Shown: positions 50,983 to 58,544 of the stretch, piece after piece
Layout of the letters: the number at the start of each line of letters is the position of its first letter
Numbering within the stretch: position 1 is the first letter of the stretch
Assembly: GCA_043765155.1 (NCBI GenBank)
Contig: JAYUJP010000022.1
Coordinates: 5,077-69,076, forward strand
Direction of reading: 5' to 3'
Length of the DNA: 64,000 nt
DNA from: a bacterium
Lineage (GTDB): Bacteria > Patescibacteriota > Minisyncoccia > Phycocordibacterales > UBA5272
Position numbers and translations under genes: made by a program
Notes under the pieces: model-generated
What the model saw: only the letters and a program-made list of their open reading frames with translations
What the model was told of the DNA's origin: nothing
Database searches by the model: none

Positions 50983-53568
50983 ATGAAATACTCTAAAAAT
51001 TGGCTACAAGAATACATAAAAGAAAGTCTTCCGCAAGATAAGATAATAGAGGATGTTTTAAATGCCAAAGCTTTTGAAGTAGAAGGATTAGAGGTTATAA
51101 AATATTCTAAAATATCTAAAAATGGAGAGATAAAAGAAGTACAGGATACTATTTTTGATATAAAAGTTTTACCTAATCGCGCCCATGACGCACTGTGCCA
51201 CTTGGGTATGGCGCGTGAAGTTGCTGCTTGTCTTGACTTAACTTTTAAAAAAGAGGAGATAGATAAATATGAGAATCTTGATAATTTTAAAAGTATAAGC
51301 AAATTTGAATTTGATAATAATATAAAAAAAGTAAGTATAAAAATTCTAGAAGATAAATCTTGTACAAGATTTATGGCTACGCGTATTGACGGAATTGTCG
51401 TAGGAGAGAGTCCAGAGTGGCTCAAAAATAAATTAGAAGCAATAGGGCAGAGAAGTATTAATAACATAGTAGATATAACTAATTATGTGCAGTATACCCT
51501 CAACAAGCCGATGCACGCTTATGATGCTAATAATATTGCTGGCGGCTTACAAGCGAGATATGCTGCAGAAGGTGAAGTGTTGGTAACACTTGATGACAAG
51601 GAGTTAATTTTGAATCAAAGCGGCACAGAAAAAGTTTTGGTTATTAGTGATGATAAAAAAGCCTTAGGTCTAGCTGGTATTAAGGGTGGTAAATACTCAG
51701 GCGTTAACTCAGACACTACCAGTATGATATTAGAGAGCGCTAATTTTGATCCAGTTTTAATACGTAAAACTAGTCAAAAATATAACATTAAAACAGATGC
51801 TAGCAAAAGATTTGAGAATGGTATTGCTGATACCCTAGTCGAGTCAGGATTACACATGACAATAAGTGAGATCTTAAAGCTTTTCCCAGATGCAAAAGTT
51901 GGAGAGATTGGTGACACAAAATTAAGAGAATATAAAAATTATAAATCTGGGGTTACTTTAGATGATGCAAATAGTATATTAGGTTCTGACATATCAGAAC
52001 AAGAATTAGAGAATATTTTAAATAGACTTGGATTTGAATATGATAAAGTTAATACGACAGAAAAGTTGAAAGAGCTTATAAAAATAGCTATAGATAAGCC
52101 ATATAAAAGAGGGGCTAGTGTAATGTATGATGCGCCAGAAAGTTTTGACTGCTCATCACTCACTAATTATTTTTATAAAGAAAGTTATGGTCACATACCC
52201 AGAATATCAATAGATCAGTATGTATTTTCAAAAGCAATTAAAACAGAAGAAGCAAGATTTGGAGATTTGGTATTTACCAATACAAATATTATCAAGACAA
52301 AAGATAATAATATATTTTCACAGGTTCTAGGTAAAGTTGTAAATGATATAGGCACTAGAACAGAAAGTTTAGAATTTATGAAGGGTGCAAAAGTAGAGGG
52401 CGGCATAGATCATGTGGGATTTTATATAGGTAATAATCAAGTTTTGCATGCGAATAGTACTGATGGAAAAGTGGTATTAGAAGATATTGATGATTCAAAT
52501 GCTTTTAAGAATTCTAAATTGCTTAGAAGACCTTTTGAAAATATAAAAGATTTTAGTTATATAGTGAGCATACCTCACGAAAGACTAGACCTGCGTACAA
52601 AAGAGGACTTAATAGAAGAGGTTGGTAGAATATATGGTTATGAAAAATTAGTGCCTATTTTGCCAGATCTTAAAAATAAAATACAAGAAAATAAAATAGG
52701 ATTAATAAATAATAGATTGAATACTCAAAATATAATTAGAAACATTTTGAATAAATATGACTTTTCAGAGGTTATAACTTATAGCCTCACAGAAAAAGGT
52801 GATATAAAATTAGCTAAGTCAGCGAGTGACAAGACAAAGTTACGCATTAATATAAGTGATGGACTTTTAGAATCCCTTAATAAAAATCTTGGCAATATGC
52901 CACTACTTAATCTTGAGACTGTTAAAATGTATGAGATGGGTTCTGTATTTATATTGGGCAAAGATACAAATAAAATCACAGAACCTCTTAACCTTGCTAT
53001 CGCTATAGATGACGGCAAGAAGAAAAGTCATTTCCAAGAAGAGATTAAAAATATTTTATTAGAAATAGAAAAAAAGTTAAACTTAGAAAAAATAGATTTT
53101 GTAGTAAAAAGTGTTAAGCCTTATGTTATAGAAATAAGTCTAGATAACATAATAAATCAAATAGAAAATATAACAACAGGAGAAAATTTAGGAAATAACT
53201 TTTTAAGTCTAGATAATAAAAAAATAGAAAATATAAAATACAAATCATTTTCTCAAATGCCATTTGTTGTGCGTGATGTGGCATTTTGGTGTGATGTTAA
53301 TACTGACAAAATAGAAATATTAGGAGTGATAAAAGATAATGCTGGGGAATTGTGTGTTAGTGTTAATATATTTGATGAGTTCACAAAAGAAATAGAAATA
53401 AAAAAAGACTCACAAGAAAATAGCGTAACAGAAAAGAAAACTATGAAAAGTCTAGGTTATAGATTAGTCTATCAAGATAATATTAGAACACTCACTGATG
53501 AGGAAGTTAATACATACTCTGATAAAGTGTATGAAGTATTAAAAAATAAAGGATTTGAGATAAGGTAA
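50983..53568 (+). CDS. pheT: Phenylalanine--tRNA ligase beta subunit with an NlpC/P60 domain inserted in the B5 domain
   Basis: N-terminal tRNA-binding domain (MKYSKNWLQEYI...), B3/B4 (SPEWL...VDITNYV...PMHAYD), B5 halves (ILGSDISEQELENILNRLGFEY / RRPFENI..IPHERLDL..EDLIEEVGRIYGYE) and the C-terminal domain (FVVRDVAFW) are all present. Between the B5 halves sits a roughly 135-aa NlpC/P60 core (FDCSSL...GDLVF...HVGFYIGNNQVLHA). Confidence 0.9.
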   Translation: MKYSKNWLQEYIKESLPQDKIIEDVLNAKAFEVEGLEVIKYSKISKNGEIKEVQDTIFDIKVLPNRAHDALCHLGMAREVAACLDLTFKKEEIDKYENLDNFKSISKFEFDNNIKKVSIKILEDKSCTRFMATRIDGIVVGESPEWLKNKLEAIGQRSINNIVDITNYVQYTLNKPMHAYDANNIAGGLQARYAAEGEVLVTLDDKELILNQSGTEKVLVISDDKKALGLAGIKGGKYSGVNSDTTSMILESANFDPVLIRKTSQKYNIKTDASKRFENGIADTLVESGLHMTISEILKLFPDAKVGEIGDTKLREYKNYKSGVTLDDANSILGSDISEQELENILNRLGFEYDKVNTTEKLKELIKIAIDKPYKRGASVMYDAPESFDCSSLTNYFYKESYGHIPRISIDQYVFSKAIKTEEARFGDLVFTNTNIIKTKDNNIFSQVLGKVVNDIGTRTESLEFMKGAKVEGGIDHVGFYIGNNQVLHANSTDGKVVLEDIDDSNAFKNSKLLRRPFENIKDFSYIVSIPHERLDLRTKEDLIEEVGRIYGYEKLVPILPDLKNKIQENKIGLINNRLNTQNIIRNILNKYDFSEVITYSLTEKGDIKLAKSASDKTKLRINISDGLLESLNKNLGNMPLLNLETVKMYEMGSVFILGKDTNKITEPLNLAIAIDDGKKKSHFQEEIKNILLEIEKKLNLEKIDFVVKSVKPYVIEISLDNIINQIENITTGENLGNNFLSLDNKKIENIKYKSFSQMPFVVRDVAFWCDVNTDKIEILGVIKDNAGELCVSVNIFDEFTKEIEIKKDSQENSVTEKKTMKSLGYRLVYQDNIRTLTDEEVNTYSDKVYEVLKNKGFEIR

Positions 53569-53613: not shown

Positions 53614-54222
53614 TTAGGGGTCTGTCTTGTATTTTCCTTTTGAGTATATTATGGAGATATTTTTTGGTGTTGCTTCTAGCCCCTTAGCTCTACAATATTT
53701 TAGTATCGGTACATAATTTTTAGATGACATACCGATAAAAATAAAACTGTAAGAAATAAAAAGTTGCACATCTACACCTAGCCTCCTTGCTTTTTTAAGC
53801 TTAGTGTCTATATTCTCAAAAGATAATCCAAGTATAGCCGGTGACGAAGTGATCAACTTTTGCGGATCTTTAAATCCTCGCTCAATTAATCCTGCAATCT
53901 TAGTGTCTATATTCTCAAAAGATAATCCAAGTATAGCCGGTAACGAAGTGATCAACTTTTGCGGATCTTTAAATCCTCGCTCAAGTAATCCTGCAATCTT
54001 AGTGCCTATATTCTCAAAAGATAATCCAAGTATAGCCGGTAACGAAGTAATCAACTTTTGCGGATCTTTAAATCCTCGCTCAAGTAATCCTGCAATCTTC
54101 GTGCTTATTTCTGATGCTGGCCACAAAGCTGGCTTAAAAGGTGTCTGTTTGTCTACCCATACCTGACCAAACGTTTTTACATATGCCATTTTTCTAGCTT
54201 GGTGTTCATGGTTTGAAAGCAT
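53614..54222 (-). CDS. Tandem 33-aa helical-repeat protein, mTERF-like
   Basis: Three nearly identical repeats TKIAGLLERGFKDPQKLITSLPAILGLSFENIG, plus degenerate flanking repeats (KKARRLGVD...NYVPILKYCRAKGLEATPKNI), fit the L..G.s...i..lP.iL..s.e.i periodicity of mTERF motifs. Confidence 0.55.
   Translation of the reverse strand: MLSNHEHQARKMAYVKTFGQVWVDKQTPFKPALWPASEISTKIAGLLERGFKDPQKLITSLPAILGLSFENIGTKIAGLLERGFKDPQKLITSLPAILGLSFENIDTKIAGLIERGFKDPQKLITSSPAILGLSFENIDTKLKKARRLGVDVQLFISYSFIFIGMSSKNYVPILKYCRAKGLEATPKNISIIYSKGKYKTDP
53800..54096. repeat. 3 x 99-bp near-perfect direct tandem repeat (coding)
   Basis: Units 53800-53898, 53899-53997 and 53998-54096 differ by only 2-4 substitutions. 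Confidence 0.9.
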
Positions 54223-54308
54223 GTAATCTCCTTTTTCGTTAATGAAAGAACTTGATAGATAATATCATTATAAAAAGCCTAAGTCAAGTTTAGTAAAATT
54301 CATATTTT

Positions 54309-54327: not shown

Positions 54328-55638
54328 ATGTATATAAAATATAAAAAAATACATTTTATAGGAATTGGTGGTATAGGAATGTCAGCTCTTGCTAGATATT
54401 ATAAGTCTCAAGGTGTAATTATTAGCGGTAGTGACTCATCAGAAAGTGAGCTAATAGATAATCTTAGATCTGAGGGTATTATTGTAAATATTAGCGAAAG
54501 TTCTGATAATGTAGCGGATGACATAGACTTACTAGTCTATACTATTGCTATTAAGAGTGATAACGTGGAGCTATTAAAAGGTTTAGAACTAGCCAATAAT
54601 AATGAAAAGAGCTGTAGAGTGTTAACTTATCCACAAGCACTCGGAGAGATGTCACGTGAAAAAAAAGTGATAGCCGTATGTGGTACTCATGGCAAGACCA
54701 CAACTACGGCGATGGTATATAATGCCCTGCAAAATGCTGGATTAGATGTCTCTATGATACTTGGTTCACTAATTAAGGATAAAAATAGTGAAAACAAAAT
54801 GACTAATTATATACACGGCAATAGTGACTGGATAGTTATAGAAGCTTGTGAGTACAGGAGAAGCTTTTTAAATTATAATCCTGAGATAATATTAATTACT
54901 AATATCGATGCCGATCATCTAGATTATTATAAAGACATCGATGATATTGAAAATGCTTTTAGAGAGTTTATAGACAGGTTATCAGAAAACGGAAAAGTTA
55001 TAATACATAAAAACGAAGAGAATATTCTCGAAAAATTAGAAAAGAAAAAAGTTGTAAATAAGATTATTTGTGAAGATGTTATAAATCTAGAAGATGTAAA
55101 ATTAAGTGTACCAGGCGAGCATAATAGAAAAAATGCGCAGCTTGTTGTCGCTCTGGGTGATATGCTTAGTCTAAATAGAGAAAAAGTTTTAGAGGGCCTT
55201 AAAAATTTCGCTGGTACATGGAGAAGGCAAGAATATAAAGGTAAGCATTTTGATATGGAGTGTTATGATGATTATGCTCATCACCCATCAGAAATAAAAG
55301 CAACTTTGCAAGCCTTTAGAGAAAAATGTCCTGATAAGAAAATCATAGCTTGCTTTATGCCTCATCTTTATAGTAGAACCAAGATATTATTTGATGACTT
55401 TGTAAATAGCTTTGAAGATGCTGACGAAATTATACTATTGCCAATATACGCAGCGCGCGAGCAAGTAGATATTAGTATAAGTAGCGACATGTTAGCGCGT
55501 GAGCTTAATAACATAAATAAAAAGGCTGTATCACTTGCTAATATAAATACTTTGAAAGACTATTTAAAAATTCATAGTGACAAAGATAATGTAGTAGTAA
55601 CTATGGGTGCGGGAGATATTTATAAACTCTACGAATAA
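54328..55638 (+). CDS. murC: UDP-N-acetylmuramate--L-alanine ligase
   Basis: HFIGIGGIGMSALA N-terminus, GTHGKTTTT P-loop, and Mur ligase middle and C domains. Confidence 0.9.
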   Translation: MYIKYKKIHFIGIGGIGMSALARYYKSQGVIISGSDSSESELIDNLRSEGIIVNISESSDNVADDIDLLVYTIAIKSDNVELLKGLELANNNEKSCRVLTYPQALGEMSREKKVIAVCGTHGKTTTTAMVYNALQNAGLDVSMILGSLIKDKNSENKMTNYIHGNSDWIVIEACEYRRSFLNYNPEIILITNIDADHLDYYKDIDDIENAFREFIDRLSENGKVIIHKNEENILEKLEKKKVVNKIICEDVINLEDVKLSVPGEHNRKNAQLVVALGDMLSLNREKVLEGLKNFAGTWRRQEYKGKHFDMECYDDYAHHPSEIKATLQAFREKCPDKKIIACFMPHLYSRTKILFDDFVNSFEDADEIILLPIYAAREQVDISISSDMLARELNNINKKAVSLANINTLKDYLKIHSDKDNVVVTMGAGDIYKLYE

Positions 55639-55714: not shown

Positions 55715-57202
55715 ATGAAAGCCTACTTAATATACCCGCATCAATTATACAATCCAGATAGCATAAAAAATCTTTTACTTGAGAGCAATTTTGACTATAT
55801 TGTACTTGCTGAAGAGTTTTTATATTTTAAGCATTTTTATTTTCACCCTATCAAGGTAAAATTCCACATAGATACTATGCATGCTTATAAGTTAGAATTG
55901 GAAAAATTTTTAGAAAAAACAAAAATAAAAAATATTAAAATTATTTATATAAAATCAGAAGAGCTAGGTAGTACAGAAAAGCTGGCACAATTATTAAAAA
56001 ATGAGTACAAAATTAAAAATATAATCACTCATGACCCGACAGATGTATGGTTAACAAAACACATGTCTGCTGAGTGTAAAAAGTTAGATATAGAAATAGA
56101 GTATATGGACTCGCCTAATTTTATTTTCTCAAAAAAAGATATAGAAGACTTTTACGTTGTAAAAATAGGTGAGAAAAATAGTATCAAAAAAATGCTTATG
56201 AATACCTTTTATATACATTCTCGTAAGAAGTTAAATATTTTGATAGCTGGCGGAGAAGAGAAAATAGATTATAAAAACATGATGCCGATTGGAGGCAAGT
56301 GGAGCTATGATGTTGAAAATAGAAAAAGTATACCCAAGGGTATGGAGACGCCAGACGAGTCACATTTTAAATGGGCGACTACAAGAGCTGAAGCAGAAAA
56401 AGTAATGAATCAATTTTTCAAAACAAAATTTGCAATGTTTGGTGACTATGAGGATGCTATTGTGAGTGATAAAAATTTTCTTTATCATTCAACACTCTCT
56501 GCGTATATAAATGTGGGACTACTTGACCCAAAACAAGTTGTAAACGAGGCTCTAAAATTTTATGAGAATAGTAAAAAAGAAAACAAAAAAGATGAAGGTG
56601 AGATAAAATTAGCAACGATAGAAGGATTTGTAAGGCAGATTATCGGCTGGAGAGAGTATATGAGAATAGTTTATATTTTGAAAGGTGATGAGATCAGGAC
56701 TAAAAACTTTTTTAAATTTGACAAAAAATTACCTTATACTTTTTGGACAGCAACTACAGGTAACGATGTTATAGACAAGACAATAGCCAAAACTATTAAG
56801 TATGCCTATAATCACCACATAGAAAGACTTATGATACTGGGTAATTATATGTTACTCAAGGAATATAATCCAGATGATATATACAAGTGGTTCATGGAAA
56901 TGTATATAGATGCTTATGACTGGGTGATGGTGCCAAATGTATACAGTATGAGCCAATACGCTGACGGTGGTATTATAACTACTAAGCCGTACGTCTCAGG
57001 CAGCGCTTATGTAAAAAAGATGAGTGACTACAAAAGTAGTAGTAAAAAAGAAATAAAATCAGAAGGATGGGACACAGAGTGGGACAATTTATACTGGGAC
57101 TTTATTTATAAAAATAGAGAAAAGTTTAAAAATAATTTCCGTATGGCCATGATGGTTAATATGTCTATCAAAAGATTTGAGAAAAATAATATAAAAGAAT
57201 AA
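55715..57202 (+). CDS. Cryptochrome/photolyase-family protein of the FeS-BCP / (6-4) photolyase PhrB type, lacking the Fe-S cysteines
   Basis: Near-identical blocks to A. tumefaciens PhrB: GFVRQIIGWREYMRIVY, HHIERLMILGNYMLL, WFMEMYIDAYDWV, KPYVSGSAYVKKMSDY, and NLYWDFIYKNREK. The positions of the four PhrB [4Fe-4S] cysteines are not Cys here. Confidence 0.85.
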   Translation: MKAYLIYPHQLYNPDSIKNLLLESNFDYIVLAEEFLYFKHFYFHPIKVKFHIDTMHAYKLELEKFLEKTKIKNIKIIYIKSEELGSTEKLAQLLKNEYKIKNIITHDPTDVWLTKHMSAECKKLDIEIEYMDSPNFIFSKKDIEDFYVVKIGEKNSIKKMLMNTFYIHSRKKLNILIAGGEEKIDYKNMMPIGGKWSYDVENRKSIPKGMETPDESHFKWATTRAEAEKVMNQFFKTKFAMFGDYEDAIVSDKNFLYHSTLSAYINVGLLDPKQVVNEALKFYENSKKENKKDEGEIKLATIEGFVRQIIGWREYMRIVYILKGDEIRTKNFFKFDKKLPYTFWTATTGNDVIDKTIAKTIKYAYNHHIERLMILGNYMLLKEYNPDDIYKWFMEMYIDAYDWVMVPNVYSMSQYADGGIITTKPYVSGSAYVKKMSDYKSSSKKEIKSEGWDTEWDNLYWDFIYKNREKFKNNFRMAMMVNMSIKRFEKNNIKE

Positions 57203-57203
57203 C

Positions 57204-58544
57204 ATGCAAAAATTTGAAACAGATTATAACAAAATAATAGAGAGGATAAAAAATATAGATCCAGTCATTTATGCTAGGACCAGAAATAGCCTTGATGGTG
57301 ATGTGAGTTATATATCAAGATACCTCACTCATGGAGTTGTCAGTCTAAAATTAGTAAAAGATATTACCAATAAAATCTCTAATACAAATCTAGAAAATAA
57401 AAATTACTCTGATAATATAAAATATGAAAAATGGAATCAGGAGTTAGCTTGGCGGGAATATTTTCATAGGGTGTGGCAGTCACTCGGCGACGATATATTT
57501 TCTAGTATAAGACAGGATCAGAGTAACGTTAAGCATGCAAGTGGTATACCGATATCTTTTGCAAATCTTTCTTCTTATAGTAAAATAGAAGAAGTAAAAA
57601 AAGATAATAAAGAGAGTGGAAAAGAAAACTCAGAACTAGATAGTACTGGTGTAAAAAGCCTAGATAGAAATATAGAAAAACTAATAGAGACTGGTTATAT
57701 GCATAATCACGCCCGTATGTGGACTAGCATGCTAGCTACAAATATAGCCGGCTATGCTTGGAGTGATTGTAGCCGCTGGATGTATTATCACCTAATCGAT
57801 GGTGATCTGGCTAGTAATACCCTCAGCTGGCAGTGGATATGCTCTACATTTTCAGCAAAGCAGTATGTTGCTAATCAAGAGAATATAAATAAGTATGACA
57901 GGGACAATGCACAGCGTAAAACTTATCTGGACTGTGAATATGAGGACTTATATGACGCAGTATTACCAGAAAGCATGATAGCTAGTTTTGATATACAAAA
58001 ATATTTTGATGATGATTTTGAATTAGATACCCAAGCGTTAAATAAATACTCTATAGGAAATATTTTAAAAGATAAAAATAAGGAAGGAGAAAATGAAAAC
58101 AAAAAAGAAGAAAATAAATTAGAATTAGAGCAAGTGTTAAACTTTGAAAATAATTTTGATAAAAATAAAAATACTATAATATATAGCATGTGGAACCTGG
58201 ATCCGACTTGGTATGAGGATAAAGGTGACAATATAAACAGAATTTTATTTATAGAAAAGTCAGCATTAAAAGACTTTCCTATGAGCACCAAGCGTATAGA
58301 ATTTGTACTAGAAATTACTAAAAATATCTCAGATAAATATAAGAATTTTCAGATACTATACGGAGAAATTAACGAGTTAGAAGGTCTTGTTACAAAAGAT
58401 AAGCTTGATAACAGTATCTCACGTGAGTATCCGCTTTGTAATCACTGGGGTAACTTGGTAGAAGATAGAGAGTGGCTATATCCTAATTACTCTTGGAGTA
58501 GCGGCGGCTTTATGTCATTCTGGTCAAAAGTTAATGGGAGGTAA
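57204..58544 (+). CDS. Photolyase-family protein with permuted domain order (FAD-binding domain N-terminal, alpha/beta photolyase-like domain C-terminal)
   Basis: Residues 20-235 align with the photolyase FAD domain (YARTRNSLDGDVSYISRYLTHGVVS; LAWREYFHRVW; TGYMHNHARMWTSML...YHLIDGDLASNTLSWQW). The C-terminal 150 aa resemble the N-terminal alpha/beta domain (IIYSMWNLDP...ILFIEKSAL...MSTKRIEFVLEITKNISDKYKNFQILYGE). Confidence 0.65.
   Translation: MQKFETDYNKIIERIKNIDPVIYARTRNSLDGDVSYISRYLTHGVVSLKLVKDITNKISNTNLENKNYSDNIKYEKWNQELAWREYFHRVWQSLGDDIFSSIRQDQSNVKHASGIPISFANLSSYSKIEEVKKDNKESGKENSELDSTGVKSLDRNIEKLIETGYMHNHARMWTSMLATNIAGYAWSDCSRWMYYHLIDGDLASNTLSWQWICSTFSAKQYVANQENINKYDRDNAQRKTYLDCEYEDLYDAVLPESMIASFDIQKYFDDDFELDTQALNKYSIGNILKDKNKEGENENKKEENKLELEQVLNFENNFDKNKNTIIYSMWNLDPTWYEDKGDNINRILFIEKSALKDFPMSTKRIEFVLEITKNISDKYKNFQILYGEINELEGLVTKDKLDNSISREYPLCNHWGNLVEDREWLYPNYSWSSGGFMSFWSKVNGR

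Follow-up and report, generated by a model that had tools for sequence, protein, structure and literature searches.

The window, i.e. the whole stretch of 64,000 nucleotides that was analysed, has a GC content of about 33% and displays a strong strand bias. Between pheT (50983..53568) and murC (54328..55638), the only gene on the minus strand is an mTERF-like gene, and RF-1, a DPRP/photolyase pair, a MurD-like ligase and gyrB are encoded nearby. GyrB shares 80% identity with a "Patescibacteria group bacterium" protein and 73-74% with proteins from Nomurabacteria, Paceibacterota and Parcubacteria, which places the organism among the ultra-small bacteria of the CPR/Patescibacteria. The deduced product, referred to here as the window protein, is basic (pI 9.79) and consists of two caps that enclose three tandem units. 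The gene and its associated features are as follows:

53614..54222, minus strand: whole gene including the stop codon, encoding a basic 202-aa protein with a predicted mTERF fold
54103..54222, minus strand: N-terminal cap (aa 1-40) with the motif MLS..R..FY..FG....LWP, conserved in the Patescibacteria subfamily
54004..54102, minus strand: unit 1 (aa 41-73), type L21/L27, encoding TKIAGLLERGFKDPQKLITSLPAILGLSFENIG
53905..54003, minus strand: unit 2 (aa 74-106), type L21/L27, encoding ...ENID and identical to unit 3 of the L042 allele
53806..53904, minus strand: unit 3 (aa 107-139), type S21/L27, encoding TKIAGLIERGFKDPQKLITSSPAILGLSFENID and identical to unit 4 of the L042 allele
53614..53805, minus strand: C-terminal cap (aa 140-202) and stop codon, with degenerate mTERF-like helices and a pI of about 10
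54228..54233, minus strand: ribosome-binding site AAGGAG, read from the sequence 5 nt upstream of the ATG
54259..54287, minus strand: candidate for a sigma-70-like promoter, TTGACT, a 17-nt spacer and a TG-extended TATTAT, with 10 of 12 matches (a consensus match only)

In alignment A1 the residues R10, Y14 and W34 of the N-terminal cap are invariant, and the C-terminal cap carries the motif RRLGVDV..FI....F.GMS.K.Y.PI. The predicted model places helices at residues 4-18 and 20-26 of the former and at residues 152-158, 161-164, 167-179 and 186-195 of the latter. The promoter candidate is located within a 105-bp divergent spacer that is common to the gene and murC. No intrinsic terminator was found between pheT and the mTERF-like gene, an Rfam search over the window detected four tRNAs only, none of them at the locus, and no paralogues of the protein are encoded within the window. 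Moreover, an all-vs-all BLAST comparison of three genes per side at about 40 loci revealed no conserved neighbourhood or operon, and only near-identical strain pairs were linked. The mTERF-like gene is a stand-alone gene with its own ribosome-binding site and a promoter-like site that was recognised by consensus match.

Two of the neighbouring regions show peculiarities of their own. The DPRP (PF04244) and FAD_binding_7 photolyase-family genes are adjacent to each other on the plus strand (55715..58544) between murC and the gene of the MurD-like ligase, which places a light-repair pair inside a Patescibacterium cell-wall gene cluster. The PheT protein (50983..53568, plus strand, 861 aa) contains an NlpC/P60 cell-wall hydrolase/peptidase domain at residues 373-434 (56.6 bits against a cutoff of 23) that is inserted between B3_4 and B5, an unusual fusion; the PheT architecture is identical in the independent assembly L042.

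The tandem array was delineated with Tandem Repeats Finder at positions 53800..54103, with a period of 99 bp, 3.1 copies, 97% matches, 0 indels and a score of 573. It comprises three in-frame units that share 95-98% nucleotide identity and differ pairwise at 3, 2 and 5 nucleotides, located in codons 1 and 18 (synonymous), 7 (L/I), 21 (L/S) and 33 (G/D). The original prediction had described three 99-bp units differing by 2-4 bases in a protein essentially built from repeats. The near-identical units are present, but their differences range from 2 to 5 nucleotides, and the second part of the description was overstated, as only 99 of the 202 residues belong to the units and the remainder is contributed by the 40-aa N-cap and the 63-aa C-cap. 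A 120-aa open reading frame on the plus strand (53804..54166) lies inside the array and is itself repetitive; it represents a shadow of the repeat and no gene.

The mTERF proteins were long regarded as a eukaryotic, organelle-linked invention. The Pfam profile PF02536 (mTERF) matched the window protein with 28.4 bits (gathering cutoff 23.1, E 9.8e-7) and recognised 21 of 31 subfamily members with the same architecture (best E 6.6e-18), the missed proteins being mainly those with a single unit. A phmmer search against PDB sequences ranked human MTERF3 first, and a profile search against the PDB aligned MTERF3 only. An AlphaFold2 model computed from a 31-sequence alignment reached a pLDDT of 87.6 and a pTM of 0.76 and predicts a repeating pattern of helices of 13, 7 and 5 residues per unit; the predicted model thus displays motifs of about 30 residues with two alpha-helices and a short third helix in a superhelical stack. 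When this model was compared with the PDB by means of Foldseek, the best 16 matches were all MTERF3, MTERF4 or MTERF1, with MTERF3 as the best single match.

The canonical mTERF signature consists of a proline at motif position 8 and leucine or another hydrophobic residue at positions 11, 18 and 25 (Roberti et al. 2009, quoted in PMC11417379). It is present in the window protein as P22, L25 (P+3), I32 (P+10) and L6 of the next unit (P+17), and these residues are invariant or nearly so throughout the family. The window protein is neither nucleus-encoded nor organelle-targeted, which is a taxonomic habit of the mTERF family and no structural requirement. Since sequence, profile and predicted-fold evidence agree, the proposal of an mTERF-like protein turned out to be correct; the mTERF fold as such is taken from a model predicted with confidence. 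Other solenoids were searched for in parallel: TPR, Sel1 and further solenoid families gave no Pfam match even at E<=10 and did not occur among the structural matches listed. The two-helix unit with a repeat-variable diresidue at positions 12/13 and the superhelix that characterise TALE and TALE-like proteins were likewise not found in the window protein. NCBIfam yielded just a spurious sub-threshold match to RbfA, the PADLOC defence models and PHROGs returned nothing meaningful (repeat-inflated matches without a significant stretch), and no match below E 0.2 was obtained among the BFVD viral structures.

A word-indexed search collected 88 relatives, mostly from Patescibacteria (Kaiser-, Lloyd-, Peregrinibacteria and others) together with a set from Alphaproteobacteria, and a scan with one genome per species detected 13 loci, all of them in Patescibacteria. 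An exhaustive profile search of 1.84 billion representative proteins resulted in 672 proteins at E<=1e-3 and 86 at E<=1e-30; the family is therefore rare, as had been anticipated for mTERF motifs in bacteria. Every member follows the same plan of an N-cap, N tandem units and a C-cap, with N ranging from 1 to at least 9 and with several different cap types, and the unit spacing in 133 relatives was 33 aa in 222 cases, 34 aa in 46 and 35 aa in 4.

The alphaproteobacterial relatives are prophage genes. The member from Methylovirgula ligni (GCA_003387225.1; locus L043, 8001..8741) is identical to that of the IMG/VR viral genome IMGVR_UViG_2770939601_000001 (L046); the gene is flanked by those for an MT-A70 methylase and DUF7146, GapR, AAA, NusG-like and TerL proteins, and its stop overlaps its neighbours. 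This prophage context suggests a role in phage transcription or DNA transactions. A second copy (L044) adjoins a phage lysozyme gene, and three further viral contigs carry relatives.

The longer relatives P0149, P0152, P0164, P0178, P0122 and P0228 (267-478 aa) form a subgroup with degenerate 34-aa units, and several of them begin with a hydrophobic, signal-like N-terminus. All six have in common a conserved domain at the C-terminus, with ...NW.WIF..[YH]K.C... as its final motif, and their architecture thus seems to be a different one that is possibly exported. The 2097-aa protein P0211 carries mTERF-like units near residues 1638-1712 (9 matched stretches), which points to a repeat module fused to other domains.

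The first report of prokaryotic mTERF relatives dates from 2024 and concerned gut MAGs of Bacillota (Hu et al., Nucleic Acids Res 2024, PMC11417379). These "prokaryotic mTERF-like" tandem-repeat proteins, termed pTERF, stem mostly from Bacillota MAGs and contain 3-11 units, and pTERF1 (MBQ3414883.1) was placed in the 35-aa-period cluster TR_35_C32 (PMC11417379). In our literature search, no other paper used "pTERF" in the sense of Hu et al. and none linked mTERF with Patescibacteria. A lineage with a 35-aa period was present among the profile matches of the window family, represented by P0146 (E 3.4e-39 with the A1 profile), and comprises no fewer than 398 relatives, each of which matches PF02536 and some of which stem from MGnify. 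An hhalign comparison of A1 with A3, the alignment of this lineage, yielded a probability of 98.9% and an E-value of 1.8e-17 at 35% identity over 127 columns, and the two extra residues of the 35-aa unit fall in the GF..DP loop. In its 35-aa period, its occurrence in MGnify and gut metagenomes and its PF02536 matches, the lineage fits the description of pTERF, and it shares with the window family both the copy-number series and the variable patch described below. By this match to the description, the 35-aa lineage, a homologue of the window family, probably represents pTERF as published.

With respect to copy number, the 90% cluster of the window protein includes a 235-aa form (P0089) that is encoded at the identical locus in the independent assembly L042 (ENA ERZ27314326, a 72,067-bp contig). 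Over 10.5 and 10.2 kb of flanking sequence the two contigs share 99.96% and 99.90% identity, respectively, and the two proteins have identical caps. The L042 allele consists of four units (LY, LL, LL, SL), the window allele of three (LL, LL, SL). Unit 1 of the window is an exact chimera, its 5' end matching unit 1 and its 3' end unit 2 of L042, and the two alleles thus differ by a clean in-register step of 99 bp. Similar differences were observed elsewhere: the syntenic loci L021 and L023, originating from two metagenomes and having flanks with 99.55-100% identity, are exactly 198 bp or two units apart, and the proteins within 90%-identity clusters differ in length by unit steps, for instance 144/177/210 and 288/321 residues. 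In the 35-aa lineage, the clusters of P0270, P0260 and P0330 form series in 35-aa steps (240/275/310/345/380 and 236/271/306/341) within 90% identity, and copy-number variation is therefore a trait of the whole superfamily. The view that the locus is prone to changes in copy number is supported by the comparison of these assemblies.

The difference between the window and L042 is probably either a deletion of one unit or an assembly collapse, judged from the two sequences. The latter explanation, according to which the gene in fact has four or more units and differences in copy number between public contigs are in general artefacts, deserves serious consideration and falls somewhat short of an even chance. 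A collapsed repeat would be expected to show an exact in-register chimera such as that of L042 units 1 and 2, no more than 2-5 nt in 99 separate the units, and assemblers evidently struggle with such genes: at about 15 of the 41 loci from the genome and metagenome scans, a contig starts or ends inside or at the gene (L006, L007, L020, L022, L026, L028-L032, L034, L035, L040 and L041). Short-read assemblers often break at arrays, and the unit counts in public data are therefore lower bounds. An identical chimera is, however, also produced by unequal crossing-over or slippage. Moreover, 12 substitutions and 2 gaps over the 20.7 kb of flanking sequence separate the two contigs, which are therefore not one consensus, and P0002, a relative with 92% identity, likewise has three units, but with the unit types in a different order. 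The exact unit-step series, too, recur in many clusters and partly on many contigs, the 144-aa form having been seen on 35 contigs and the 177-aa form on 11, and some length variants of the 35-aa lineage are located on contigs of more than 700 kb and recur on many contigs.

The homogeneity of the units extends beyond the window locus. At positions 4, 7, 8, 12 and 15 of the unit, the mismatch frequency in 64 proteins was about 0.8 between proteins and 0.09-0.31 within proteins. This homogenisation within proteins represents concerted evolution. The original prediction had interpreted the near-identity of the three units as a sign of very recent expansion. This interpretation is disfavoured, as near-identical units are typical of the family as a whole and the nearest allele has more units, not fewer. 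Because near-identity of units is the rule across the family, recent expansion is replaced by long-term homogenisation and copy-number flux, and the array in the window probably represents the loss or collapse of one unit on this background.

A small set of positions escapes this homogenisation. Among 64 multi-unit proteins, position 21 (L/S) displayed a mean within-protein mismatch of 0.71 and position 27 (L/Y) one of 0.65, followed by the junction residue with 0.49. In 24 homogenised arrays, nonsynonymous polymorphism was detected at codon 21 in 21 arrays, at codon 27 in 20, at codon 23 in 16 and at codon 26 in 12, and synonymous polymorphism at codon 21 in 1 and at codon 27 in 4. Among 35 non-redundant representatives the same four positions ranked in the order 23, 21, 27, 26 by variability, and in the wider set position 21 is also occupied by F, H, M, Q, N and K. 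The variable patch is alike in the 35-aa lineage (108 proteins), where the equivalent of position 27 is Y in 402 and L in 319 cases. In the predicted model, helices 2 and 3 are separated by a break at position 21, helix 3 carries positions 23 and 26, and position 27 follows just after it.

The codons involved allow some insight into the age of these states. In the Methylovirgula array (65% GC), the units of which are 4-7 nt apart in 99, codon 27 is either TAC or CTG, and in L044 one unit has AGT and another TTG at codon 21. The states at positions 21 and 27 are thus no simple mutational toggles. Both states appear to be old and retained, because codon differences of several nucleotides persist while the rest of the unit is homogenised. 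These observations bear on the idea that a single 99-bp unit was triplicated very recently in this lineage, without any lasting constraint on the unit. The 95-98% DNA identity of the units is in line with such an event, but equally homogeneous arrays of 2-9 units occur in Patescibacteria, in alphaproteobacterial prophages and in the 35-aa lineage, dimorphism at the same two positions is seen everywhere, with codons that differ by as many as 3 nt although the units are near-identical in other respects, and L042 as the nearest allele exceeds the window in unit number. As this pattern needs long-term homogenisation along with retention of both states, a single recent triplication is regarded as very improbable.

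The arrangement of the states along the arrays was examined as well. All four combinations of L/S and L/Y are common (54, 50, 38 and 23). Adjacent units shared their state in 33/112 and 36/112 cases, compared with 0.39 and 0.45 expected from the pooled frequencies. A strict alternation, i.e. a two-unit super-repeat, was tried as a model and found weak support in within-protein shuffles (p about 0.11 and 0.04), and no size-compensating coupling was detected between position 21 and position 27 of the neighbouring unit.

These data permit an assessment of the proposal that the protein serves as a protein-protein scaffold or a purely structural solenoid, in which positions 21, 23, 26 and 27 are packing positions that read no ligand and an alternation of states keeps adjacent identical units from misfolding or determines the pitch of the superhelix. 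Positions 21 and 27 mostly hold hydrophobic residues (L, F, M, Y), which suit packing at least as well as base reading; position 27 is aligned with the hydrophobic residue of the LL.hS stretch of MTERF3, and neighbouring units share a state less often than the pooled frequencies predict. Nevertheless, such a scaffold is considered rather improbable: the alternation is weak, all four combinations are common, the size compensation between neighbours is absent, position 21 also accommodates H, Q, N and K in the wider set, the mTERF fold is known solely as a nucleic-acid binder, and among pTERF members the DNA motif that is bound changes with the arrangement of the units (PMC11417379). The patch formed by positions 21, 23, 26 and 27, in combination with the number and order of units, is the best candidate for tuning binding specificity or solenoid geometry. 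It is common to both branches and, as far as the searchable literature shows, has not been described so far; the text of Hu et al. (PMC11417379) names no variable residues.

With a probability of roughly 60%, these lines of evidence can be combined into one reading. The window protein would be a small, basic, all-helical mTERF-fold solenoid composed of an N-cap, three near-identical 33-residue mTERF motifs, each with one long and two short helices, and a degenerate C-cap, and it would belong to a superfamily of tandem mTERF-like repeat proteins that is rare and occurs in prokaryotes and phages. Homology and fold suggest that it would bind nucleic acid along the solenoid, most likely dsDNA, and it may act as a stand-alone regulator, roadblock or terminator-type factor with expression from a promoter of its own. 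Recombination within the gene or gene conversion would keep the units near-identical and would also shift their copy number in clean 99-bp steps, while the helix-3 patch (positions 21, 23, 26 and 27) would stay diverse between units and, together with unit number and order, tune specificity or geometry.

As to the ligand, the window protein would bind nucleic acid, most likely dsDNA in the manner of pTERF and MTERF1; its pI of 9.79 and the DNA binding of the related pTERF proteins are indirect indications of nucleic-acid binding. For pTERF1, SELEX revealed the motif ACTNNNAGTC in dsDNA, bound with a Kd of 1.87 nM and corroborated by EMSA and reporter activation, and pTERF2 binds a different motif (PMC11417379). 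The three or four units at the window locus and the caps form a short solenoid, and binding may therefore need oligomerisation. The protein could instead bind RNA or associate with the ribosome and act on rRNA, introns or other structured RNA, following the models of MTERF4-NSUN4 on mitochondrial rRNA, of the mitoribosomal mTERF-fold proteins and of plant mTERF4 in group II intron splicing. Several RNA binders do occur among the best structural matches, namely MTERF4 as well as mL121, mS93 and mL114 of the mitoribosome, but MTERF3 is the best single match and the score of the DNA binder MTERF1 is similar to those of the rRNA binders. Among the prokaryotic relatives, the closest ones that have been characterised show a nanomolar Kd for dsDNA and activated a reporter through a DNA site (PMC11417379), no linkage to rRNA, ribosomal or methyltransferase genes was observed in about 40 loci, and the phage-borne relatives are located among genes of DNA transactions and regulation (Cro, MT-A70, GapR, NusG). 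An RNA-directed role is thus unlikely, and dsDNA remains the preferred ligand.

A more far-reaching proposal regards the bacterial and phage mTERF-like repeats as a second, independently evolved modular scaffold for nucleic-acid recognition with a programmability like that of TALE proteins. Each unit would read a short DNA (or RNA) step by means of its helix-3 patch, the recognition code would consist of the ancient and actively maintained dimorphisms at positions 21 (L/S) and 27 (L/Y) along with positions 23 and 26, and recombination within the array would shuffle and resize it, giving rise to new specificities. We consider this a long shot. In particular, a simple polar code of one base per unit was given a low probability because the pTERF1 motif is partly palindromic and misfits a simple polar modular read-out.

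The kind of protein described here has been known since 2024 (PMC11417379); new are the 33-aa unit, the branch in Patescibacteria and prophages, and the presence of the canonical signature. This second, more canonical branch, which has kept the Pro/Leu signature, is present in Patescibacteria and is carried by prophages in Alphaproteobacteria, widens the question of the origin and spread of the mTERF fold. In both branches, what homogenisation has left variable is located on one small patch (positions 21, 23, 26 and 27). Hu et al. noted that pTERF proteins may be reprogrammable (PMC11417379), and the variable patch provides a concrete, testable hypothesis for this "reprogrammability", which was only hinted at in their study (PMC11417379). 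For genome curation, the locus represents a documented array whose copy number differs between assemblies of one population, in a family with frequent contig breaks.

A comparison with known systems places the window family closest to pTERF. Both are bacterial and consist of three-helix mTERF-like units that are strictly tandem, near-identical within a protein and variable in number, and the 99-bp period with 95-98% nucleotide identity conforms to the strictly tandem, highly similar units of pTERF. The period itself differs, as the unit of the window protein comprises 33 aa instead of 35 (34 in some members of the family), and so do the N- and C-caps. The window locus has 3-4 units, compared with the 3-11 reported for pTERF, and the window family occurs in Patescibacteria and alphaproteobacterial prophages, not in Bacillota. 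Whereas pTERF1 is said to lack the canonical Pro/Leu signature (PMC11417379), the window family has kept it. The eukaryotic mTERF proteins (human MTERF1-4 and those of plants; PF02536) have degenerate, non-identical motifs in fixed copy number and are nucleus-encoded and organelle-targeted; the window family, in contrast, has near-identical tandem units in variable number that are encoded by a bacterial chromosomal gene, and the sequence identity between the two groups amounts to only 14-21%. The TALE and TALE-like proteins (AvrBs3, BurrH/Bat, STAR) resemble the window family in their near-identical helical units of 33-35 aa, their concerted evolution, their few repeat-variable positions and their variation in copy number, and for pTERF the likeness includes a DNA specificity that shifts with the arrangement of the units.
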